A stretch of DNA of 64,000 nucleotides, from the IMG/VR virus record IMGVR_UViG_3300048930_000283; one strand, written 5' to 3'. Of this stretch, positions 7,206 to 36,200 are shown piece after piece; position 1 is the stretch's first letter; the number at the start of each line of letters is the position of its first letter. The notes below the pieces were generated by a model that was given only the letters and a program-made list of their open reading frames with translations, made no database searches and had not been told where the DNA came from. The DNA comes from a virus (lineage: Duplodnaviria > Heunggongvirae > Uroviricota > Caudoviricetes). Both the position numbers and the translations under genes were made by a program.

Positions 7206-9879
7206 ATGGATTGTAATACTGTCTATCTGTGTTCTGCGCCACCTGTAATGAACCGCCTGTCACTTTCAGTGTAAAGGCTGGACGTAATGCCTGGTAGTTG
7301 TTATGGAAAACTACGATATAAACTGGAAGATCAGACGCATAGTAATAAGAATATTTGACTCTATATCTACCAGCATTATCTGGGTCCGCATCTACTGTTA
7401 CTCCATTCAGACCACTTGGAGATGCCCCAACATTCTCTGCTCCACCCAATTCAGACAAGTCGGATTGTTTGTATATTCTAACTTCAGTTCCGTCTATAAT
7501 ATTTGTTACATAAAAATCAACAGGATCATCTAATGGATATTGAATAGCTTGTGCTGTTGTATTGCTGCTAGTTAATGCATAAACTTCTGTCAAAATGTTA
7601 GCAGCGTTTGTTGCACTTGCTGTGACCCTGATCTTGAATTTGAAGCCGGCAACCTCATCCACTGTCTCACCTGATAAGTTCGATGCATTAAATGTCTTCC
7701 ATGTTCCATTCCAGCCAGATCCTGTGTCAATCTGGTATTCTGTAGTTATGTTAGTTGAGGTTGTAATTGTGGGTGCACTGTTCTGGAAGCTATCAATACC
7801 AATTATAGTGTGCGGCCATTCAAATATAGCGTAGTCACCTGAGTTAACTAATGCTAAACCTTGTGTAGAGTTAAACCCTGAAGTTCCTGTGGATGATGTA
7901 CTAAAGCTTGTAGTTACATATGGTGCATACTCTGCTGTAGGTTCACTAAACTTTAAACCTAAGCGCCCAGCTGTTGTACTGGTAAAATGATGATAAAAAC
8001 ATGAACCGTATATAGACGCAGTAGAAGCGGGTGCAATTCCTGCAAACCCGCTGTTCTTAACAATTTGGTTCAGTGCTGCAGACACCAGGTTCTTATATAC
8101 TGTGACGTTACCTTCGCAGTTCTCGATCAGCACTTCCTTGCTGGAGTTCACTGCGTTGTAAAACGTGGTAGCTATAAGGTTGAAATAAATGCGCTGGAAC
8201 TTCAAGCGCTGTGAGTTACCCGCATCATTACAGAAGTACAGCATGGCGTTGCTAGACCCTGCCGACAACTTACTAGCGTAGGTTCCAATATTCCTGGCCT
8301 TGACCCCATAAGCAGCGTTTAGATACAATATAGCCGTGTCAGGATGCACGTTAGCAACTGAGGTATACCATGAAAAGCCACTGATTACAGTATTCGAAGT
8401 ACCACCAATTAATTGAATAACTCCAACAGGTGGTGTTGTTGAACTTGATGTAGTATGGTGACTATCAGCGTATTGTTGATTGTTAATTGTAGTGTCTGTG
8501 CAAGTCAAAAAGTATAAAGATCCTCCAACATTTACGCAATTATTAAATGTCAAGCCGTCGCAATATGCAGCATAGAACGGGTGCGACGCCGCGTTGGTGC
8601 GGAATGTCCTGTTGGCAAAGAAGCATCCTGTGAAGGTCAGGTCGTTGCAATACTGGACGTTTGTGCCGTAGTCTGCCGACCCGATGGTACCGGTGCGGCC
8701 CAGTTTGCAACTGTCAATCGTTCCACCAGCGAAGTTGGATGTCAGCACCATCGCGGGCGCATCCTGCGCAATGGTGTAGTTGCCGTTGTGGCACTCCAAC
8801 AGATCAAGCGCGGTCGCGCATTCCGTCAGGGTGTATTGGTCGAAGAGTGCGAGGTTGTGCAACCGTAATGAGTACGCCTGCGACGAGTTGATCTGCCAAT
8901 GGCCAATAGCCCCGTCAATATCGATCTGGCCCGCGTTGGTGGTGGTGAAGTCCGGCCGCGTCGCCAGCGTGCCGTTGGGCACGGAATCCGAAGCCCGCGA
9001 GGCCGTGGCCGCCGACTTGAGGAATACGTTCGGTACGCGAAACTTCGCTCCACTTGTCGGTATTTTACCCCATGCAGTAGTACCGTTACCACCAAAGCGG
9101 ATGATGCCGCCACCTAAACACTCACAGAACTTACTACGAGCATCTGTTCCCATATGTGAAGCAGACCAAAATGTACCTGTACCTGTAATACAAGCTGGCC
9201 AGAATTCCCATGTACCGTTTGCAGCTTCATCAACCCATACACCAGGTAGATAGAAGTTAGCACCGCCATAATTAGGGAATTGTACCTGTTGATGCGCTGA
9301 ACCTGATCCTGTGGTTTCAGACTCGAACCAATCCCCTGTGATTGTGAATTTCTGTGCTCGGCCAATAGTAAAGCCAGCAGCGTCGTCCATGACAACTTCG
9401 ATCCATCCTCGGCGCCCTATACCATTTGCCAAACATAAATCTGTGGAGCCTTGAATCTCAAGTGTCTCATTATCTTGAAACGTGCCTGTGACACTCTTAA
9501 GCTTGAGGTATCCCGTCGCCGGCATAGCCGACCCGGCCGCTGTGGGCGTGGCGTTGATGGCCGACGTGCAGTTCATCAACTCGCCATACGCCCCGGAAGT
9601 CACCCCTGCGATGATGGTGCCCAGGGCCGGGACGTTTGGCGTGCCGATGCGGCCGTCGTAAGCGATCAGCCACACCTTCGTACCATCAATAACAACCTCG
9701 CCGCCCGAGGCCGCCGTCATAGTGAAAGACCCCATCGACCCAGCACGAGACGCTGCAGCATTCTTGCCGTCGCGGGTGTCGCTATCTATGGTGAAGACAG
9801 CGCCTGAATTAATGGTAAATGCTTCTCCTGCGGTTCTTGCTGCAGAATCAAATGTTTGCGATGTGCTTATTGTAGCTAT
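7204..9879 (-). CDS. Large tail spike/fibre with beta-helix-like region; probable 48-codon N-terminal extension beginning at ATA
   Basis: Frame stays open from 9735 up to ATA-GCT-ACA-ATA-AGC (IATISTSQTFDSAARTAGEAFTI...), with an in-frame TAA two codons further upstream. Confidence 0.65.
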   Translation of the reverse strand: MATISTSQTFDSAARTAGEAFTINSGAVFTIDSDTRDGKNAAASRAGSMGSFTMTAASGGEVVIDGTKVWLIAYDGRIGTPNVPALGTIIAGVTSGAYGELMNCTSAINATPTAAGSAMPATGYLKLKSVTGTFQDNETLEIQGSTDLCLANGIGRRGWIEVVMDDAAGFTIGRAQKFTITGDWFESETTGSGSAHQQVQFPNYGGANFYLPGVWVDEAANGTWEFWPACITGTGTFWSASHMGTDARSKFCECLGGGIIRFGGNGTTAWGKIPTSGAKFRVPNVFLKSAATASRASDSVPNGTLATRPDFTTTNAGQIDIDGAIGHWQINSSQAYSLRLHNLALFDQYTLTECATALDLLECHNGNYTIAQDAPAMVLTSNFAGGTIDSCKLGRTGTIGSADYGTNVQYCNDLTFTGCFFANRTFRTNAASHPFYAAYCDGLTFNNCVNVGGSLYFLTCTDTTINNQQYADSHHTTSSSTTPPVGVIQLIGGTSNTVISGFSWYTSVANVHPDTAILYLNAAYGVKARNIGTYASKLSAGSSNAMLYFCNDAGNSQRLKFQRIYFNLIATTFYNAVNSSKEVLIENCEGNVTVYKNLVSAALNQIVKNSGFAGIAPASTASIYGSCFYHHFTSTTAGRLGLKFSEPTAEYAPYVTTSFSTSSTGTSGFNSTQGLALVNSGDYAIFEWPHTIIGIDSFQNSAPTITTSTNITTEYQIDTGSGWNGTWKTFNASNLSGETVDEVAGFKFKIRVTASATNAANILTEVYALTSSNTTAQAIQYPLDDPVDFYVTNIIDGTEVRIYKQSDLSELGGAENVGASPSGLNGVTVDADPDNAGRYRVKYSYYYASDLPVYIVVFHNNYQALRPAFTLKVTGGSLQVAQNTDRQYYNP

Positions 9880-9882
9880 GAC

Positions 9883-10040
9883 TTACCCTTTCAAAACAAT
9901 TTCAATATTATTATCACTCTCTACGATAACCATATCAAGTGGTGCTTTATTATCAGATAATCTAATAGTTATAACAGTTTCTGCGGATAAGTCATAGATA
10001 AAGCATACAATTCACCAATAAGCTCTTGAAGTGTAATCAT
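9883..10040 (-). pseudogene. Small ORF with apparent 1-nt deletion frameshift
   Basis: MITLQELIGELYALSMTY then, after TATCCGCAG, AETVITIRLSDNKAPLDMVIVESDNNIEIVLKG* in another frame; span is 158 nt (3n-1). Confidence 0.5.
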
Positions 10041-10041
10041 G

Positions 10042-10308
10042 TTATCTTCCCTTCGTTGCCTTACGTTGTTCTTGTAGCATCATCTCTATCAGTCGTTCTT
10101 GACGAGCTTGACCTTCCATCATTGCTTTAGTACGTTCATCAATGCGCTCAGATTGCTTCTCAATAGTCTGCACTCTCTGTTGCGTCACTGCATTCTCTTT
10201 AACAACATCTTCTAAGGTAGTTATCTTACTCTGAGTTTGACCCCAAGCTATACCTGCAGTAAGTATAGCTACTAATAGAAACCAATGTTGTTTAAGCCAT
10301 TCAAGCAT
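10042..10308 (-). CDS. Holin-like small membrane protein
   Basis: N-terminal TM (WFLLVAILTAGIAWG) plus coiled coil. Confidence 0.5.
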   Translation of the reverse strand: MLEWLKQHWFLLVAILTAGIAWGQTQSKITTLEDVVKENAVTQQRVQTIEKQSERIDERTKAMMEGQARQERLIEMMLQEQRKATKGR

Positions 10309-10357
10309 AGAAATTAGGTGCCTTATTCTTAGTGTAACGATACGTTTCTACCATAAA

Positions 10358-10864
10358 TTACTTAACTGGTATAGGTACAATTGGTGGCCATCCTGCAGGT
10401 TTATCTATCTCTAAATGCAACTTTGTCTTATCTGCTAACTCTTCGGATGCTTTAATCTTATCATTTACTGTAGATCCAAAGATACTAGCAATAAGAGTAA
10501 TGACTGCAACAGCACCTGTTATCGTGTAAACCCATTTATCTACCTTTTTATCAACTTCACCAATTTTTTTTTCAGCCTCATCCTTGTTAGTCTGAACTTG
10601 TTTTTCTATTGCTTTAAGAATAGCACCAATGTCCTCAATCAGTCGATTGTGGTTCTTATCTCTTTCTTCAATGATCGTAACACGCTCCAGTATCTCAGTG
10701 ACCCGTTGGATATAAGTATCCATGGATTCTATATGTTGCTCAATGCCACTCACACGTACAGAAAACTCTTGTCTAAATGATGATTCTTCCTTGAAGTGCT
10801 CATCTAATTTATCAAACAGGAGTGCAATATCTTTATCGTAACTTCTTCGTTCAGCGTCAGACAA
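10358..10864 (-). CDS. Coiled-coil protein with C-terminal TM (holin-like)
   Basis: TTG start with RBS GAGGA; TM WVYTITGAVAVITLIASIFG. Confidence 0.5.
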   Translation of the reverse strand: MSDAERRSYDKDIALLFDKLDEHFKEESSFRQEFSVRVSGIEQHIESMDTYIQRVTEILERVTIIEERDKNHNRLIEDIGAILKAIEKQVQTNKDEAEKKIGEVDKKVDKWVYTITGAVAVITLIASIFGSTVNDKIKASEELADKTKLHLEIDKPAGWPPIVPIPVK

Positions 10865-10888: not shown

Positions 10889-13030
10889 TTATTCGTGATC
10901 TAGTAACCTACCTTCTACGTAATCATTGACAAACTTTACTGCGTGTTTGTGCTCCAAGTTGTGCTTCTTCGCAATTGCTTTGTGTGCTTTGATACAGTGC
11001 ATACCAAGAGTATCTGCATCCATAGTACGATTCTTGTATTTATCTATGTGCTTGTCTAAGTGATCCCCTATATCAGTGTATAGTTGGGACATTTTGGATT
11101 CACTTAAGGTTTCTTCTTTTATTGGGTTACTATCATTGTGGCCTGCAGTCAATTTATTACCGGAAGAGGTCTTACCTCGCTTTAATGTTTCTGGTGTAGT
11201 ATAACCCATAATCTTTGCCGACTTAGTATGGGCAGTTGCTCTAACTAATTGGCCAGATTTAATCTTCTTTACGTTTTCGTTGTTGTCATCTAACCAATTA
11301 ATAGAATGATCGTCGTAACGAATGAAATTCTCATTAGTTTTTCTGACACCATGGTATTCCTTAAATGCACGAAATGCAGAATCTCGGTTAGTATGCCCAA
11401 ATTCCATATATGATTTTCGATGGTGATAAAATCCATATGACCCATTATCATGTCTCAAAATACTACCTAAATAATTACCACTGGTCGAGTTAATTTCTTC
11501 ATGCTCAGTATAATTAGGAGTGGACTCATCCAATCCTTTACGCATGATCTCCTTATTCTTAAGATCACTTGTCTTAGTACCTATAGGTAGTCTCTCGTCT
11601 CCCTTATCCTTAGGTTTGTCATGCTTAAATTTGAATCCTATAGGAAGTCTTTCATCGGTGTCGATTTCTTCTTGTATCTTAAATCTTCCATTAGGTACTT
11701 GTGTTTTGCTATGCTCATTATGTAGTTCATGCATTGCAGCTAATGCGTCTAGTTTAGCTTCATTGGAATGTCCATCATACATTCTCCATCCATCATCCGA
11801 CTTATAGTGTAATATACTATATCCATGTTTATGTTTGTTGATCTCACCGATTTTTTGCTTAGTTTTGCTATCAACGACAAATGATGTGGATTCCTCCAGC
11901 CCCTCCTTAACCAACTTATCGGTATTGATTTCCTCTCTCATTTCATCTCTTCTATCTCTCTTACCTAAATCATATTCATCCTGCCATTTTTTATGGTCAT
12001 TGGTTCCTTGTTTATGCGGGTTAAGTGGATGAGGTTTTTTATACAGGTCTCTATGAAAATGACCATATCCTAGAGTATAAGCATCATTTTCTTCATTCAA
12101 TATGCCACCATTTGGATTTTTTGGTTTATCATATTTACCCGCTGATCTAACCTGGTGAGTACTTACGGCTCCTATTTTTTTGTACTTCACATCTTGTTCA
12201 GTATCATTGACATTTGTAATATAGTGGACCCGCTTTTTTCCATTCTCAGAAGTATAGATGGTATGATTTTCTCTATGACCAAATACAGGATGATCTACAA
12301 TTGCTCGAGCATGATGAATTATCTTCCCCCCTGCAGCTTTTATCTTTTGCTTAATTGTTTCTGAAGTTTCACTTGGGGTTGACTTAAATGCAGACACTGT
12401 AAATGCTTCATCCAAACCACTACGAAGAATCTCAAGTTCTTCCTTCTTTAGTGGATCTGGGAGTCCGAGTTGTTTTCTTCTCTCTGCTGGAGATGGAATG
12501 GAAGGTAGTGGCTTATTGGATTCCTGCTGTTTTTTGATATAGTCAGAAAGTGTCTGACGTGCCTTGGAAGTGTCTTCCTTTAGATTCTTAAAGTGCCTAT
12601 TGATGTAGTCAGTCTTACCTGTCTTATAAGGTGTGTAGCCACCGTGCTCATTTTTTAGTGACTCACCTTTTTGGTGTGTCTTGATTATAGAAGCCCACTC
12701 ATGCTTTTCTCCCTTAGCATGCACGTGCATCTCATATCTATCGCCGTTGTCGAACGATTTGGAGCCCACTACGGTTTTTGCCTCAGCCAACTCAGTTTCT
12801 TCTTTAACCACAGCCTTAGGTACCTTGGGGTGTTTCTCAGGCATTGCAGTAGGGTGTTCATCTTTGTGGTCGATGACTGTTTTTGGTAGCTGTGTCTTAG
12901 GATCGGTGGACACCTTTGCCTTCTTGGACCTTAGCTTGTCAGCAAGATCACCCCAACCAGGCTTTTTACCTTCCAATTTATTCGCTTCGCCAGTCCAGCT
13001 TTCTAGGTACTCTTTGAATTTTTTGGTCAT
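10889..13030 (-). CDS. Putative internal head protein, multi-module, with capsid-targeting N-terminus
   Basis: MTKKFKEYLES; recurring LxE/EE linkers; K/H-rich modules. Confidence 0.65.
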   Translation of the reverse strand: MTKKFKEYLESWTGEANKLEGKKPGWGDLADKLRSKKAKVSTDPKTQLPKTVIDHKDEHPTAMPEKHPKVPKAVVKEETELAEAKTVVGSKSFDNGDRYEMHVHAKGEKHEWASIIKTHQKGESLKNEHGGYTPYKTGKTDYINRHFKNLKEDTSKARQTLSDYIKKQQESNKPLPSIPSPAERRKQLGLPDPLKKEELEILRSGLDEAFTVSAFKSTPSETSETIKQKIKAAGGKIIHHARAIVDHPVFGHRENHTIYTSENGKKRVHYITNVNDTEQDVKYKKIGAVSTHQVRSAGKYDKPKNPNGGILNEENDAYTLGYGHFHRDLYKKPHPLNPHKQGTNDHKKWQDEYDLGKRDRRDEMREEINTDKLVKEGLEESTSFVVDSKTKQKIGEINKHKHGYSILHYKSDDGWRMYDGHSNEAKLDALAAMHELHNEHSKTQVPNGRFKIQEEIDTDERLPIGFKFKHDKPKDKGDERLPIGTKTSDLKNKEIMRKGLDESTPNYTEHEEINSTSGNYLGSILRHDNGSYGFYHHRKSYMEFGHTNRDSAFRAFKEYHGVRKTNENFIRYDDHSINWLDDNNENVKKIKSGQLVRATAHTKSAKIMGYTTPETLKRGKTSSGNKLTAGHNDSNPIKEETLSESKMSQLYTDIGDHLDKHIDKYKNRTMDADTLGMHCIKAHKAIAKKHNLEHKHAVKFVNDYVEGRLLDHE

Positions 13031-13039
13031 TTTTATCTC

Positions 13040-13564
13040 TTAGGTTATTAATACAGAAAGGCATTCTTTCATTGGATGAATATCGTTTTTAGGTTTCACT
13101 ATAGTAAAGTGGGTTTCATGATTTCCAATAATTTCTTCACTGTGCTCAATTTCATGACCATTTTTTCTAGCTACTTTTTCAATAATTGGTTTTAACGCAT
13201 GGTGCATCTGCTTAGTTGCCGATATTTTTAGTGATCGGTTTTGATCTAAAACGTGCTCTTTAGCATACTTCATCATAGTACCGATAAATCTTGGTTTTGC
13301 GTGTTCTAGTCTAGGTTCACTTTCACCGGAACTATTATCTGCTGCAATATGATGTAATTCATGATACTTATTTCGTATTACATGAACTATATGTCCTTGA
13401 TCTTCATCCATTTTATATACTTTAACAGCACCAAATTTGTGATCTTTATAGTTGCTGTTAGTATTTAAATGCAGACGAACCTTCTCTTCCATTTTTAAAT
13501 CTCTAGAATAACCATATGGCTTGTCAAACAGCTCATAAAGGTACTCTTTGAATTTTTTGGTCAT
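13040..13564 (-). CDS. Putative internal head protein (CTS-like N-terminus)
   Basis: Start moved to MTKKFKEYLYELFD; TATAAATA directly upstream. Confidence 0.65.
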   Translation of the reverse strand: MTKKFKEYLYELFDKPYGYSRDLKMEEKVRLHLNTNSNYKDHKFGAVKVYKMDEDQGHIVHVIRNKYHELHHIAADNSSGESEPRLEHAKPRFIGTMMKYAKEHVLDQNRSLKISATKQMHHALKPIIEKVARKNGHEIEHSEEIIGNHETHFTIVKPKNDIHPMKECLSVLIT

Positions 13565-13589
13565 TTGTTTATCCAATCAATGTATCTTA

Positions 13590-13597
13590 TATTTATA
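13590..13597 (-). promoter_or_regulatory. T4-type late promoter TATAAATA
   Basis: Exact consensus, intergenic, 26 nt upstream of the 13564 start. Confidence 0.8.
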
Positions 13598-13664
13598 TGT
13601 TTTTGAAGTTAATGTATGGATATGTGCAAAACTTGCACAAACCACAGCAGCAACCCATTATTTT

Positions 13665-13740
13665 TCTAACTTATTGATAATGAAGATAAATTCTCACAAC
13701 ACAAAACTGCCTATTTTCACTTCATTATCAATAAGTTAGA
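13665..13740. repeat. Perfect 21-bp inverted repeat with 34-nt spacer
   Basis: TCTAACTTATTGATAATGAAG (13665-13685) and CTTCATTATCAATAAGTTAGA (13720-13740). Confidence 0.9.
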
Positions 13741-13769
13741 CACAATTTACTGAAAACCACAAAAGTTTT

Positions 13770-13973
13770 CTACTTTAGGTGTTGTTTAAGCAACCCCAGC
13801 ATATTCCTAACAACAGCATCTGGTTTAATGAATTTATCAACATTGGTTTCCTTGTTTCCATATTTTCGTTTTTCCCGTTGATACTCCTTTGCCTTCCATC
13901 CAACCGCATTACCAGCTGAATCTTTCTCCCATGCATCTTCATGTTCTCTAATGTACTCTTTGAACGTTTTCAT
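13770..13973 (-). CDS. Small putative internal head protein
   Basis: MKTFKEYIRE N-terminus. Confidence 0.65.
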   Translation of the reverse strand: MKTFKEYIREHEDAWEKDSAGNAVGWKAKEYQREKRKYGNKETNVDKFIKPDAVVRNMLGLLKQHLK

Positions 13974-14584
13974 TTTACCTTCTTCACCTTTCCTTCGTGA
14001 TCTACGTGATAAGCATGAAAATTTACCTCTGGGTACTCATGCTTAAGATTCAAAAAATGCTTCAGGTTATTATGTGAGTCATCATAGAAGTGAACGTTCT
14101 TGTATTTGCCTTGATCCAAGTACTTTCTAAGCACTACGTTCTTTTTCTCTCCAGTAGGTATTCCTTTGATATTGCCAGCACGGTGTATATGCATATCATC
14201 AACGTCAATTCCATGCTTGCGAAACTTGTTAAGTACAGGTTCTTTATCATCAAAGTCCTCTCTAGCGGTATTCATGATTATTTTGCTATCGTGACCACCA
14301 CGCTTAATGTTGGAGTGAATTGCCTTGATCTTATTCACCATTCTATGTATGGGCTTAGATTCATCGTGAAATTTCTTAGCATCTCTAAAGTCAGAGAAGT
14401 CATACTTATGACCTTTCTCTAGAGTGTGATCGTTGAACTCCTGATTGGTTAGAGACTTAATTCTCTTGCCTCTAGCATCAGTTACGTGTACTGCTGCAGT
14501 GGTCTTGAATAGAGTTTCGTCGATATCGAAGCAAAACAATTTGCTTTTAGCATTTTCTTCTAAGTATTCTTTAAATGTTTTCAT
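13970..14584 (-). CDS. HAD-superfamily phosphatase with CTS-like N-terminus
   Basis: MKTFKEYLEE; motif I FDIDET, motif II NTAR, K, motif IV FYDD. Confidence 0.8.
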   Translation of the reverse strand: MKTFKEYLEENAKSKLFCFDIDETLFKTTAAVHVTDARGKRIKSLTNQEFNDHTLEKGHKYDFSDFRDAKKFHDESKPIHRMVNKIKAIHSNIKRGGHDSKIIMNTAREDFDDKEPVLNKFRKHGIDVDDMHIHRAGNIKGIPTGEKKNVVLRKYLDQGKYKNVHFYDDSHNNLKHFLNLKHEYPEVNFHAYHVDHEGKVKKVK

Positions 14585-14865
14585 TGTAAAACACTATGCA
14601 ACTTATTATCTATATACAGATTATATTTAATTTTCTTGCCTGGATTGAGTCTTTTAATGTTCTCATGATGTTCTACAGCAGATTTCAAATCTTTAAAAGT
14701 TTTCTTTGCATCGTGCATATTACTCTCTGAACCATCAGCCTTCAATTTATGAAGATAAACAGTGTCGTTTAATTTAGTAATATCTTTTCTATGCTTCATC
14801 AGATCTGAGTGAGCATGCTTCCATCCTTTTATTTGTTCTTCTAAGTATTCCTTAAATGTTTTCAT
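14581..14865 (-). CDS. Small putative internal head protein
   Basis: MKTFKEYLEE. Confidence 0.65.
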   Translation of the reverse strand: MKTFKEYLEEQIKGWKHAHSDLMKHRKDITKLNDTVYLHKLKADGSESNMHDAKKTFKDLKSAVEHHENIKRLNPGKKIKYNLYIDNKLHSVLQ

Positions 14866-15326
14866 AGTCCCTGCTCAAAGTCCAGTCTCTTAACTACAGG
14901 TTTAGACCACTTAAGTGTCACTAAAGAATGAAAGTGTTCGAACTCAGATACAGTATTCATGAGGAAATAGTATCGAACATATCTTCCGAGCTCCTGCATC
15001 TTAGGGAATAGTCTAGTCTCGCCATCCTTCTTAAATCTATACTGAGAACCACTGACACCAACGAATTTAAGTGGCTCGGGTGTAACACTAAGTATAGGTG
15101 TTCTTCGAAGATCAACAAAAGTAGCAACCACTAAGAATTTCTTACCTCTTCGGAGATTCTTATTCAGAAAAGGAGAAATGAACGTTTCCACTTCTTCCTT
15201 ATCTTGATTGGTTAGTTCTTCCATTAGTGCTTCAGATAGTTCTTCCATCATAGTACTATCCATCTCAGACGAGTGCCAGCCTAAAGTTCTATGATCTTCT
15301 TCTAAGTATTCTTTAAAGGTCTTCAT
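14862..15326 (-). CDS. Putative internal head protein
   Basis: MKTFKEYLEE. Confidence 0.65.
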   Translation of the reverse strand: MKTFKEYLEEDHRTLGWHSSEMDSTMMEELSEALMEELTNQDKEEVETFISPFLNKNLRRGKKFLVVATFVDLRRTPILSVTPEPLKFVGVSGSQYRFKKDGETRLFPKMQELGRYVRYYFLMNTVSEFEHFHSLVTLKWSKPVVKRLDFEQGL

Positions 15327-15328
15327 CG

Positions 15329-16642
15329 TTATCTAGGGCGACCTAAGAAATTTGCACGGCTGAACGAATGTCTGCGAACTAACTTCAACGATCCACTGGC
15401 ACCAATTACCACATACCCCTCAGGTGTGGTTTCTTGCATACCTTCTGGAGTGTCGTAGAAATGTTTTATTTGTTGGTTTTTATCCAAGGTATCTATTATC
15501 TCATTCTTTAAATGTTGAATACCTGCGTGAAGACCGAATATTTGACTAATATTATCATGGTTGCTTTGCAGATGTGATACTTCCATGCTTAGTCTTGCTT
15601 GCTTCTTTTCCTTACCCGACTGTGACTTTAGCTTATTGATCTCTTTTCTTGCTTTCTCCTGATACCATTCTATGAAATCTTCTGCCTTAGGTTCAGTACT
15701 ACTCTTTACTGTTGCATTGATGTACTGCTTTAGTGTCTGACTGTTTGCCTTTGCGAAGTCTAGTGCTTCCTTAGATGTCTGATTGAATTGACTGCCTAGA
15801 GCCTTGATTCTATATGAAACATCTATGTCTGCTTGTGGTGACTGTATAGGGAGTGTGAATACGTCCTTGTGCTGCTTGTAGTCTGACTCCTGTGCTGGGT
15901 GTCTCTCTGGCTTGTTGAAGTCATGATACTTAGTGTGGATTGCTATACCAATCTTTGCCGCTGCTATTTTCCTACCCATTTCTGAGTCTACTGGGACTGC
16001 GTACTTGATTGTATTGGGTTTGAAGGTGTAGTAATCAGTGCCTTGGATATTTTCCTTCTTAATATCTTCTTTAGTGAATAATAGGTCACCCTGCAGAGTG
16101 GTTTTTGGTTGAATTTTATGGATATGTTTTAGTGCTGCCTTTAATTTTTCTACTAAACCCGGAGCATGACCGTGATTTAATTCAATATCTTCTTCTGTAT
16201 AATTCAGTTTAGGGGAATTATTAAATGCAGATTTAGTAGAAACCCAGTGTCTTGGTTCGGATTTATCTGATGATTTTGCTGGGAAGTCATAAATTGTCCC
16301 GAAAGTTAAACTAGGACTACCGTCCAACTTGACTACTAATTTTACTCTGTCGTCGTGGCCTTTCATCAGTGCTTCTATACCATGGAGATAGTTCAGAGCG
16401 TTTCTCACTCCTACCACTCCATTATTCAGTATCTCATCTTCCAGGTGCTCTAAGTGTACTAGTGGGGTTTCTCCTTTAGATGCGTGATAGGCATCCTTGA
16501 CCTTCCTCAACCAACCGAACTCTGAGTGATGTGTTACCTTGTTTCTGACACCATAACGACCAAAACCATAGTACTTTAGTCCTAGACGAACTGCTGCCTC
16601 AGATGCTGGAGATTCTTCTAAGTATTGTTTGAATGTTTTCAC
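15329..16642 (-). CDS. Ligase-like covalent nucleotidyltransferase (possibly DUF6267-type) with CTS-like N-terminus
   Basis: GTG start, MKTFKQYLEE; VKLDGS (motif I KxDG), LQGDLLF (III), PEGYVV (IV), LKLV (V). Confidence 0.65.
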   Translation of the reverse strand: MKTFKQYLEESPASEAAVRLGLKYYGFGRYGVRNKVTHHSEFGWLRKVKDAYHASKGETPLVHLEHLEDEILNNGVVGVRNALNYLHGIEALMKGHDDRVKLVVKLDGSPSLTFGTIYDFPAKSSDKSEPRHWVSTKSAFNNSPKLNYTEEDIELNHGHAPGLVEKLKAALKHIHKIQPKTTLQGDLLFTKEDIKKENIQGTDYYTFKPNTIKYAVPVDSEMGRKIAAAKIGIAIHTKYHDFNKPERHPAQESDYKQHKDVFTLPIQSPQADIDVSYRIKALGSQFNQTSKEALDFAKANSQTLKQYINATVKSSTEPKAEDFIEWYQEKARKEINKLKSQSGKEKKQARLSMEVSHLQSNHDNISQIFGLHAGIQHLKNEIIDTLDKNQQIKHFYDTPEGMQETTPEGYVVIGASGSLKLVRRHSFSRANFLGRPR

Positions 16643-17748
16643 GTTTGAATGCCCATTTTCTCTGAGGTTGTCTCATCTTTTGCTCGAAAATATATTTGAT
16701 GTGTCATCATAGAGTCCGAATCCATAGTAAATTCCGGCAACATATTATTATCCAATTTCATAATGTTATAGTAAATAACATTATTGGTCGCGTCTATAAA
16801 TATTTTCTTAAACTCATCTGTTGTTTTTGACCATTCCTCAATTGCTTTCCTGGGTGTTTTGTTATTCTTTCGGACAACCCCCTTACTCAATAGGTACGAA
16901 TATGCAATACCTGGTCCCGATTTTCCATCATTTTCATTAATAATTTTTATAACTTGAAATGCGTGCGACTTAGTTCGTTCCCACTTAGATAACAACCCAT
17001 TAGTTCGTAAAAGGTGCAAAATATCATTCGGCTTAACAGTATTGGTTTTTGAGCTAGAAACAACAGACTTCGCACTTATCTTTATATCCTTCTTACCATC
17101 ATAGACTATATAGTCAACTAAGGGATAGTTAGCTGCTTTAGGTAAAAATATATCATATTGATTTTTATCCTTATTAAATAAAGTATGCTTTCTATTGATT
17201 TGATATAAGGGACCTATCACCTCACTGAAGTTATTCCAAATAGTCTTCGGAATATTTGCCTTACCATATTCTTTAATTATTTTTGGTAAGAACTCTGTGG
17301 CATGTTGTTTTTCTTTAGCAGTTCCTGCAGCATAAAGAGTCATACCCCACGCAATATTACTGCTAATAGGACCAATTTTTTCCTCATTTTCTATTAGCGA
17401 GTTATATGTTGCCTTAACTAAATCATCATATCTCCATTTTACGTCAGTTAACCCTAAATTTTTTGGGGTCATATCAAAGTTCTTCTCACGCCCGGGTTTG
17501 GTTATAACCGAATAACTGATAGTATATATTTTTCCCCCATACTTAACAGTATAAAAATTACCTTCCTTCCCAGTATCGATAAATTCTACAGTACTACCAT
17601 TGTCGATAGTTTTAACAGTAGAACCACTTTTGGGATCCAATAGATTTATACCAGATCCCTTTTTATTTACTAATAACAGCGGAATCCCAGATTTACCTTG
17701 GAGATAATCTCTATATGCAGAGAATTCATTTAACTTCCTGCCTGCCAT
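16639..17748 (-). CDS. PD-(D/E)XK nuclease-like protein with SH3-like N-terminal domain
   Basis: NYPLVDYIV...IKISAK active-site-like pattern; TVKY GKIYTI SH3-like strand pattern. Confidence 0.55.
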   Translation of the reverse strand: MAGRKLNEFSAYRDYLQGKSGIPLLLVNKKGSGINLLDPKSGSTVKTIDNGSTVEFIDTGKEGNFYTVKYGGKIYTISYSVITKPGREKNFDMTPKNLGLTDVKWRYDDLVKATYNSLIENEEKIGPISSNIAWGMTLYAAGTAKEKQHATEFLPKIIKEYGKANIPKTIWNNFSEVIGPLYQINRKHTLFNKDKNQYDIFLPKAANYPLVDYIVYDGKKDIKISAKSVVSSSKTNTVKPNDILHLLRTNGLLSKWERTKSHAFQVIKIINENDGKSGPGIAYSYLLSKGVVRKNNKTPRKAIEEWSKTTDEFKKIFIDATNNVIYYNIMKLDNNMLPEFTMDSDSMMTHQIYFRAKDETTSEKMGIQT

Positions 17749-17760
17749 TTTTAGTACTAC

Positions 17761-17883
17761 TTATTCCCAAGTTCCATATTCTTTAAGTATACTAATTGTC
17801 TCTGAGATGATATCTATCTCGTCTTCCCTTTTATTAGTCACCAAATCGACTGCATCTTTAAAACTTTCCGTAATCATTGGCAT
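17761..17883 (-). CDS. 40-aa hypothetical protein (below ORF-track cutoff)
   Basis: MPMITESFKDAVDLVTNKREDEIDIISETISILKEYGTWE*, strong RBS AGGAGA. Confidence 0.6.
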   Translation of the reverse strand: MPMITESFKDAVDLVTNKREDEIDIISETISILKEYGTWE

Positions 17884-17938: not shown

Positions 17939-17946
17939 TATTTATC
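17939..17946 (-). promoter_or_regulatory. Late promoter-like GATAAATA heading the CTS operon
   Basis: Directly downstream of a terminator, upstream of the 17883 start. Confidence 0.6.
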
Positions 17947-17948
17947 AA

Positions 17949-17980
17949 AAAGAAAACCCGACACATGTCGGGTTTTCTTT
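17949..17980 (-). terminator. Rho-independent terminator
   Basis: 14-bp perfect stem AAAGAAAACCCGAC/GTCGGGTTTTCTTT, 4-nt loop, U-tract; follows the modification operon. Confidence 0.85.
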
Positions 17981-18002
17981 CTAATCAGGAACTTAGATTG
18001 TA

Positions 18003-35383: not shown

Positions 35384-35601
35384 TCGGTTACCTCAATATC
35401 ATTGAAAATTTTACCACTAACCTTAGCCATAAGAACACCACACAAATCTATTTTAATCCCATTTGGTAGTATGATATATGTCATACCTGGCTTTAGTTCT
35501 CTCCGCAAAAAACCATTATGTAGCATCCAATCAACATAAATCTTATATAAGACTTCTCTTAACCTCTCAGTGTCCTCTTCTGGAATGATATATTCTTTCA
35601 T
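35380..35601 (-). CDS. Hypothetical protein
   Basis: Overlapping ORF. Confidence 0.5.
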   Translation of the reverse strand: MKEYIIPEEDTERLREVLYKIYVDWMLHNGFLRRELKPGMTYIILPNGIKIDLCGVLMAKVSGKIFNDIEVTE

Positions 35602-36137
35602 TTAGTATGCCTCATTTCAATTTGGTGTCTGGCCTTACCTTCACCCCAAATTTTAGATTCATTTTCGTCTATGTTATTCTTCGTCAGTTGTCCTATCGTG
35701 TTACCATTATGAATGTGGTGAAATGAGATTCCCTCTGGGGATTTCTTTATCAAGGTTTTCCATAAATGTTTAGATCCGTTGGTGTGCACTGTATCAGATG
35801 TTAATCTTCCATGAACTCTAGCATGATGCAACATAAAGGAATGAATGTGGGACGAATCGCCAGCATCACCCTTCTCCGTATCAACCTGAATATGGTTACT
35901 ACTAATGGTTGATATTTCCTTTACATTGTTACCATCATGGTGATAATACACATGATCTCCATCAGAGTTTATAAAATGATAATGATTATCACCTAAGTGT
36001 AAGGATTTGCCAGTGGTATGTATATTTTGATGGATCAGATTTCGATAAGATTTAGAACCAACTGAATATACATCCTTGGTTAAGGTCTTATCAATGTGTG
36101 GTGGTGCTTCTGATAGATATTGCCTGAACTTTATCAA
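35598..36137 (-). CDS. His-rich putative internal head protein (CTS-like)
   Basis: MIKFRQYLSE; exact TATAAATA upstream. Confidence 0.6.
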   Translation of the reverse strand: MIKFRQYLSEAPPHIDKTLTKDVYSVGSKSYRNLIHQNIHTTGKSLHLGDNHYHFINSDGDHVYYHHDGNNVKEISTISSNHIQVDTEKGDAGDSSHIHSFMLHHARVHGRLTSDTVHTNGSKHLWKTLIKKSPEGISFHHIHNGNTIGQLTKNNIDENESKIWGEGKARHQIEMRHTK

Positions 36138-36192: not shown

Positions 36193-36200
36193 TATTTATA
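36193..36200 (-). promoter_or_regulatory. T4-type late promoter TATAAATA
   Basis: Exact consensus, just downstream of a hairpin. Confidence 0.75.

Follow-up and report, generated by a model that had tools for sequence, protein, structure and literature searches.

Seven neighbouring genes of an uncultured T4-like phage from wastewater sludge share an N-terminal tag resembling the T4 capsid targeting sequence

The analyzed window is a stretch of 64,000 nucleotides (nt) from the IMG/VR virus record IMGVR_UViG_3300048930_000283, and all positions given here refer to this window. It represents the minus strand of a 104-kb contig with a CheckV completeness of 57%, and nearly all genes are located on the minus strand of the window. 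The source is an uncultured, distant T4-like phage from wastewater sludge. Near-identical DNA was found in the sludge and bioreactor metagenomes and metatranscriptomes of 11 studies, none of it from marine samples, and the DNA polymerase of the contig is about 45% identical to cyanomyovirus polymerases. Portal, sheath, baseplate and terminase genes were identified on the contig, as were rIIA, a DnaB-like helicase and an ATP-dependent ligase. Reading of the open reading frames (ORFs) revealed seven consecutive minus-strand genes between positions 10889 and 16642 whose products start with the tag MKTFKEYLEE or close variants of it. The genes of this array are named by their residue length (g713 encodes 713 amino acids, aa) and are listed here together with their neighbours g369 and g40 and an eighth tagged gene outside the array.

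10889-13030, minus strand: g713, 713 aa, start MTKKFKEYLES, tag-like with no Glu two residues past the Leu
13040-13564, minus strand: g174, 174 aa, start MTKKFKEYLYE
13770-13973, minus strand: g67, 67 aa, start MKTFKEYIRE
13970-14584, minus strand: g204, 204 aa, start MKTFKEYLEE
14581-14865, minus strand: g94, 94 aa, start MKTFKEYLEE
14862-15326, minus strand: g154, 154 aa, start MKTFKEYLEE
15329-16642, minus strand: g437, 437 aa, GTG start, VKTFKQYLEE (V read as M)
16639-17748, minus strand: g369, 369 aa, basic, no canonical tag
17761-17883, minus strand: g40, acidic ORF of 40 aa, untagged, coding status uncertain
35598-36137, minus strand: eighth tagged gene, TTG start, MIKFRQYLSE, 179 aa, His-rich

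The tag shared by the seven neighbouring genes was confirmed. All N-termini listed in the preliminary description of this DNA are present as minus-strand ORF starts, and its count of seven to eight tagged genes stands for the seven in the array and not for eight, since the 369-aa gene is untagged. Both g369 and g40, which head the first of two transcription units, lack the tag. In an all-against-all BLASTP comparison of the array proteins, similarity was confined to the first 10-15 residues, in agreement with the earlier statement that the bodies are otherwise unrelated. Pairwise comparison of the codons of the leaders gave 24 synonymous and 12 non-synonymous differences. The differences are thus mostly synonymous, which indicates that the peptide is conserved and that the leaders are not the product of a recent DNA duplication. 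When all ORF starts of the 104-kb contig were scanned with a regular expression for the tag, only six of the seven array genes and the gene at 35598-36137 matched; g713 was missed because it has no Glu at the position that the expression requires.

The tag is very similar to the N-termini of the internal proteins (IP) of phage T4. In the T4 record, ipI starts with MKTFKEFTST, and ipII and ipIII start with MKTYQEFIAE/A (slashes mark actual or putative cleavage positions). Five array genes (MKTFK[EQ]Y..) match five or six of the first seven residues of ipI (MKTFKEF), with Y instead of F in position 7. The variant MTKKFKEY.. of g713 and g174 is one residue longer and therefore shifted by one. For IPIII, the mutational work of Mullaney and Black, reviewed by Kuhn and Thomas (PMC9026906), established that the first ten residues suffice for packaging, that residues 4 and 7 chiefly determine targeting and residues 8 and 10 processing, and that Asp at position 10 blocks cleavage and leaves targeting intact. 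The aromatic targeting positions are kept in the array as F4/Y7 in five genes and as F5/Y8 in two. The processing determinants, L or I in position 8 and Glu in position 10, were found in six of the seven genes (shifted by one in g174), so that these six keep all four T4 determinants in type. The near-identity to the ipI start and the retention of positions 4, 7, 8 and 10 bear out the earlier identification of the tag as a T4-like capsid targeting sequence (CTS).

The head-maturation genes of the T4 type, on which processing of such a tag would depend, are present on the contig as well, with a Peptidase_S77/gp21 prohead protease (4e-38), a gp22-like scaffold gene and gp23 (1e-134), so that T4 and this phage have the gp21/gp22/gp23 module in common. 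In the gp23 of the contig, L-N-E/A is located just ahead of the conserved core and was aligned near the T4 L-T-E/A site, the known cleavage site of T4 gp23, in the corresponding N-terminal propeptide region. The similarity to the T4 internal proteins extends beyond the decapeptide (MKTFKEF.. and MKTYQEFIAE in T4, MKTFKEYLEE here), its aromatic residues in positions 4 and 7 and L/I-x-E in positions 8-10. In both cases the bodies are unrelated, mostly basic and Lys-rich, and the genes are clustered and variable between relatives. The number of tagged genes differs, however, with three (plus 61.1) in T4 compared to seven in a row and one elsewhere here. Furthermore, the bodies reach a size of up to 713 aa and include predicted enzyme-like folds.

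Among these bodies, that of g437 matched DUF6267 in Pfam (8e-80). The protein consists of the tag, an N-terminal module of about 50 aa and the DUF6267 body. Its AlphaFold2 (AF2) model has a mean predicted local distance difference test (pLDDT) score of 88.8. The top 15 VIA matches of the model were all adenylyltransferase domains of RNA or DNA ligases, with Z between 8.1 and 5.7 over 160-190 residues, values below 8 being common by chance. They include the nick-sealing RNA ligase of Naegleria, the T. brucei editing ligase REL1, T4 Rnl2, T4 Rnl1 and tRNA ligases. Motif I (K105-x-D107-G108) was invariant in 39 homologues. A sequence search of the PDB gave no hit for g437, and Foldseek against the PDB with its model returned nothing at E ≤0.001. 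The model points to a ligase-like covalent nucleotidyltransferase fold, an assignment that is likely, not firm.

The g204 protein looks like a HAD-type phosphatase, judging from the motif FDIDETL (DxDxT) and a match to PHROG 415, a polynucleotide kinase family (3.5e-7). Weak profile matches to Pfam DUF2608 (19.4 bits) and TIGR01488 (4e-4) were both below the curated cut-offs, and a PDB sequence search gave nothing meaningful. A tagged homologue in a related locus (L010) is 53% identical. The His-rich body of g174 (AF2 model with a pLDDT of 87.6) looks like a GNAT fold: all 50 best Foldseek rows were GNAT acetyltransferases, and 418 chains at Z ≥5 were of the GNAT type, with a best Z of 7.9 over 115 residues, in a range (below 8) that is common by chance. 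The earlier expectation that several of the bodies are enzymes was thus borne out at the level of enzyme-like proteins, namely the ligase-like DUF6267 protein, the HAD phosphatase and the GNAT-like fold.

The remaining proteins are less well characterized. The Lys/His-rich g713 was poorly modelled and had no usable relatives in the protein atlas. Near its residues 204, 377 and 499, a G-L-[DE]-E repeat occurs that in each case begins with [KR]-x-G-L-[DE]-E and is followed by a His-rich segment; these three repeats may be prohead-protease sites cutting a polyprotein into pieces. The untagged g369 belongs to a phage-only family, with unnamed phage clusters in the protein atlas. It starts with MAGRKLNE/FSAY, with L-N-E in residues 6-8, and its weak homologues adjoin DUF6267 in the relative L026 and in S-PM2. 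Pfam, PHROG and NCBIfam gave no match for g713, g174, g67, g94, g154, g369 and the eighth tagged protein, and 50,697 phage records searched with the array by megablast gave none either. A Walker A motif was found in none of the array proteins, so that the window holds no kinase partner for a full healing-and-sealing set.

The composition of the seven array proteins is unusual. The Lys content is 11-19% in six of them and 8% in g154, compared to 7% genome-wide, and the His content is 5-9% in five, 3.0% in g67 and 2.6% in g154, compared to 1.9% genome-wide. The isoelectric point (pI) lies between 9 and 9.6 in all of them but g154, which at pI 6.5 is close to neutral. The small proteins g94 (19% Lys) and g67 are both Lys-rich and basic. 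The internal proteins of T4 are likewise basic, and their lysines contact DNA (PMC3012670). By this analogy, the composition fits proteins that lie among packaged DNA.

Next, the sequences upstream of the array were analyzed for promoter-like and terminator-like elements. The two late boxes that had been reported at 17939 and 13590 as heading two units were both found, on the minus strand. The elements are as follows.

17939-17947, minus strand: late-promoter-like motif GATAAATAC, heading unit 1 (g40, g369, g437, g154, g94, g204, g67)
17944-17985, minus strand: terminator-like G+C-rich hairpin with a T run, 20-nt arms, 90% complementary, 2 nt apart
13590-13597, minus strand: late-promoter-like TATAAATA, 25 nt upstream of the g174 ATG, heading unit 2 (g174, g713)
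36193-36200, minus strand: TATAAATA, 55 nt upstream of the eighth tagged gene
13665-13740, no strand assigned: inverted repeat with 26-nt arms, 92% complementary, and a 24-nt loop, in the 170-nt spacer between the units

Late-promoter motifs of the type NATAAATA head both tagged units, the box GATAAATA being located at 17939-17946 on the minus strand. The same motif also precedes gp18, gp22, baseplate and fibre genes of the contig. The hairpin at 17944-17985 closes the upstream operon, which consists of 7-deazaguanine and glycosyltransferase genes, directly ahead of the first late-promoter motif. In the window, TATAAATA alone was not over-represented (5 found vs 7 expected). The core ATAAATA was found at 28 sites on the coding strand of the contig vs 5 on the other strand. 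Non-coding DNA makes up 7% of the contig and contains ten of the 28 sites (p = 1e-5), and these intergenic sites lie upstream of tail-sheath, scaffold, baseplate and fibre genes. In relatives, the motif ATAAATAT is conserved ahead of DUF6267 (L026) and of the g713 homologue (L024). The array is covered no differently from its neighbours by contigs of four metatranscriptome libraries; these data carry no timing or strand and may include DNA carry-over. The inverted repeat at 13665-13740, just upstream of the late-promoter motif, resembles the promoter/stem-loop junctions (PeSLs) of T4-like hyperplastic regions (PMC4122927).

The gene content of the array was found to vary between relatives, as expected for the expandable cassette proposed in the preliminary description. 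In L024, whose DUF6267 protein is 65% identical, DUF6267 is directly followed by a mosaic homologue of g713, a tagged protein of 553 aa, and g154, g94, g204, g67 and g174 are missing. Three to five tagged genes of differing content are present in each of the loci L026, L010 and L150. Furthermore, the identity to contigs of related strains from RNA libraries ends at 13976, 14555, 14572, 15320 and 15326, at or inside the leader-coding segments. These contigs are weak evidence, and they hint at cassette exchange at the leaders, as proposed for the IP genes of T-even phages.

For the identification of the tag in other phages, IMG/VR was scanned with the DNA encoding MKTFKEY only, and at least 119 contigs matched. 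Among the matches listed, MKTFKEY starts with the first ATG of an ORF (≥40 aa) in 95 of 119 contigs, and the three following residues, which the pattern left unspecified, are overwhelmingly L-x-E (LAE, LTE, LVE, LSE and others). Of the 136 tagged loci listed, 99 have T4-like genes in common with the contig, namely tail sheath, large terminase and DUF6267. With a relaxed DNA tag pattern, five matches were obtained in this contig; T4 and S-SZBM1 had three each, S-SM1 and Syn9 a single one, and S-PM2 none. The strict pattern MKT[FY][KQ]EF gave four in T4. Reversed-pattern controls gave no match in this contig, T4, S-SM1, Syn9 and S-SZBM1, and up to two in three other genomes. A full-text literature search for the tag strings MKTFKEY and MKTFKEF found no paper, and internal proteins are not mentioned in PMC2993671 and PMC1524935.

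At the protein level, DUF6267 has 1,753 homologues at E ≤1e-10. Nearly all of 120 homologues begin with M-x-x-F-x-x-[YF]-[LI]-x-E, with Glu10 in at least 90%. In the g174 family, the tag is kept throughout, down to 25% identity. In other loci it heads DUF6267 proteins, HAD phosphatases, cytidylyltransferase-like proteins, an adenylate kinase (1.8e-39) and an NT5C-type nucleotidase. A separate family of about 190 aa starts with MKTFKEYLxESKKxYSFKxKVAGELPE and was found at L030:6812-7405 and, among the matches listed, at about 40 further IMG/VR loci. Terminase and tail-sheath homologues often accompany it on these contigs, and no homologue of the family itself was seen on the 57%-complete contig. 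Its homologue gp202 of phage PA5oct (MKSFRDYYDAS) is a virion protein by mass spectrometry.

The location of tagged proteins could further be compared with the published virion proteomes of relatives. In the 174-kb genome of S-SM1, the sole match of the relaxed pattern is the start of SSM1_190 (MKKFSAFLNE), a T4-GC190 cytidylyltransferase encoded directly downstream of the DUF6267 gene. SSM1_190 was detected by mass spectrometry in purified S-SM1 virions (Sullivan et al., 2010, PMC3037559). Its first 52 residues are 42% identical to the first 48 of g437 (E = 1e-7), which shows that the tag and a small module are common to a proven virion protein and g437. The single match in Syn9 is gp184, the orthologue of SSM1_190. 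In S-SZBM1, the cytidylyltransferase S-SZBM1_140 (MRFRQFIIE) is part of the virion proteome, and the untagged DUF6267 protein S-SZBM1_141 is not in the published virion table (PMC9146016). These T4-GC190 proteins (SSM1_190, Syn9 gp184 and S-SZBM1_140) thus resemble the array in the type of tag and the position directly downstream of DUF6267, and SSM1_190 and g437 share the N-terminal module of about 50 residues. They differ in their cytidylyltransferase-like body, which does not occur in the window, where the module is instead fused to the DUF6267 ligase-like body.

Taken together, the tag is best explained as a capsid targeting sequence of the T4 type, borne by a changing set of late proteins that are loaded into the head, a reading to which we assign a probability of roughly 0.65 from the sequence comparisons and the analogy to T4. 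By the same analogy, the seven tagged proteins are probably carried in the virion. As in T4, the array genes would be transcribed late from the NATAAATA promoters, and the N-terminal tag, with its aromatic residues in positions 4 and 7, would dock the proteins into the scaffolding core as the prohead assembles. A gp21-type protease would then cut after the Glu of the L/I-x-E site in positions 8-10, the mature, mostly Lys-rich and basic proteins would remain in the head with the DNA, and at least some of them would exit with it at infection. The putative cargo would be mixed, with the ligase-like DUF6267 protein, the HAD phosphatase, the GNAT-fold protein, the 713-aa protein, perhaps cut up, and three small proteins. 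Docking, cleavage, retention in the head, ejection and a role of the cargo in the host are all inferred from T4.

A precedent for an enzyme, instead of a small inhibitor, that travels in the head and is delivered together with the DNA is the T4 ADP-ribosyltransferase Alt, which is packaged, trimmed by gp21 after the Glu of a short N-terminal propeptide and injected (PMC9026906). This propeptide has seven residues and is not an IP-type tag (PMC9026906). Alt has no sequence relation to any gene described here, and the enzyme classes differ (ligase-like, HAD and GNAT-like).

Several observations weigh against this explanation. The late timing of the array is deduced from a promoter-like sequence motif, and the support from virion proteomes is indirect, as it comes from other phages and not from this one. 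In g713 (..YLES), a Glu two residues past the Leu is missing. DUF6267 homologues without the tag were found in several cultured cyanophages and in HTVC008M, and some tagged enzymes of relatives, such as an adenylate kinase and a 5'-nucleotidase, have no obvious role as injected proteins. The T4 gene 61.1 (54 aa, NC_000866 18966-19130; L027:1467-1631), located in the primase region, starts with MKTFKEFIKE and has both I8 and E10. We know of no report that its product is packaged. In S-SZBM1, the small proteins S-SZBM1_191 (MKSFKSFLSE) and S-SZBM1_192 (MKTFKQYITE) have perfect tags and are encoded beside a virion structural gene (L157:2812-3626), but both are absent from the table of 30 virion proteins, in which the untagged S-SZBM1_139 is present (PMC9146016). 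S-SZBM1_191, _192 and _141 are named nowhere in the text or Table 1 of that paper. The tag therefore raises the odds of a virion location without proving it, and is an imperfect predictor.

In one alternative, the tag loads the head as well, and the proteins are structural, DNA-condensing or degraded scaffold-like components of the head interior instead of effectors for the next host, their enzyme folds being incidental or acting inside the head. The Lys/His-rich, mostly basic composition is what would be expected for the neutralization of DNA charge, and the repeated G-L-[DE]-E of g713 could represent protease sites. Several T4 core proteins are cut and lost and not injected (PMC9026906). The catalytic motifs are kept, however, with K-x-D-G and other invariant residues in DUF6267 and DxDxT in g204. 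Moreover, the fast turnover of gene content between relatives fits host-directed functions better, and with IPI* and Alt, T4 provides precedents for cargo that is injected and active. We consider this alternative unlikely.

It is quite improbable that the shared start is a translation-initiation or mRNA element, or a recombination linker for cassette swapping, with the proteins acting in the cytoplasm of the cell that makes them. In favour of this, the leader RNA is rich in A and lacks structure, and the contigs of related strains break off at the five leader boundaries given above. The presence of the same tag on T4 gene 61.1 in the primase region, and of a tagged module in the replication-gene region of other phages, would also fit. 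The conservation, in contrast, is at the peptide level, with many synonymous changes, and extends across families with ≤30% identity; the positions that are kept coincide exactly with the targeting and cleavage determinants of T4, and the tagged cytidylyltransferase is physically present in the virions of two cyanophages. A role as a linker would in any case be compatible with a sorting role. Finally, a recognition peptide for another phage enzyme, such as a degron for a ClpP-like protease or a modification site, is highly implausible: a gene for a ClpP-family protease lies a few kb upstream in L024 and L026, but T4, which targets the capsid with the same peptide, lacks ClpP, strict co-occurrence with the tag was found for no enzyme, and the L-x-E site agrees with the gp21 cleavage rule.

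If the capsid targeting sequence is accepted, a more specific and rather doubtful extension is a capsid-preloaded enzyme kit. It would comprise DUF6267 and the HAD phosphatase here, to which relatives would add P-loop adenylate-kinase-like and cytidylyltransferase-like proteins. These enzymes would be injected and act before phage gene expression, for example by healing and sealing breaks that the host inflicts on tRNA or on the incoming 7-deazaguanine-modified DNA, and the small tagged proteins would serve to inhibit host nucleases and be exchangeable.

The principle that unrelated cargo proteins have only the capsid targeting sequence in common is established for T-even phages (PMC3012670, PMC9026906). 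What stands out here is that some of the cargo resembles enzymes and that DUF6267 and its neighbours are tagged throughout their families. If the tag, which heads ORFs on at least 95 IMG/VR contigs, works as in T4, the injected or head-internal proteome of many uncultured T4-like phages could be read from sequence alone. The DUF6267, HAD phosphatase and cytidylyltransferase-like families of unknown role would then be placed inside the virion, which would provide a testable idea of their purpose.

Downstream of the array, two further features were observed. Contigs from two different studies (X15 and X18) diverge from the window at 7539 and return at 10064, and the foreign sequence is identical at both junctions. 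The C-terminal part of the 843-aa fibre/spike gene (7540-10064) thus differs in related strains; this segment has the highest G+C content of the window (0.50). At 10042-10864, two untagged genes, g168 and g88, follow the array. The first encodes a coiled coil with a C-terminal membrane helix and the second a protein with an N-terminal membrane helix, and both may be lysis or fibre-assembly genes. They are conserved beside tagged genes in the relatives L024 and L150.

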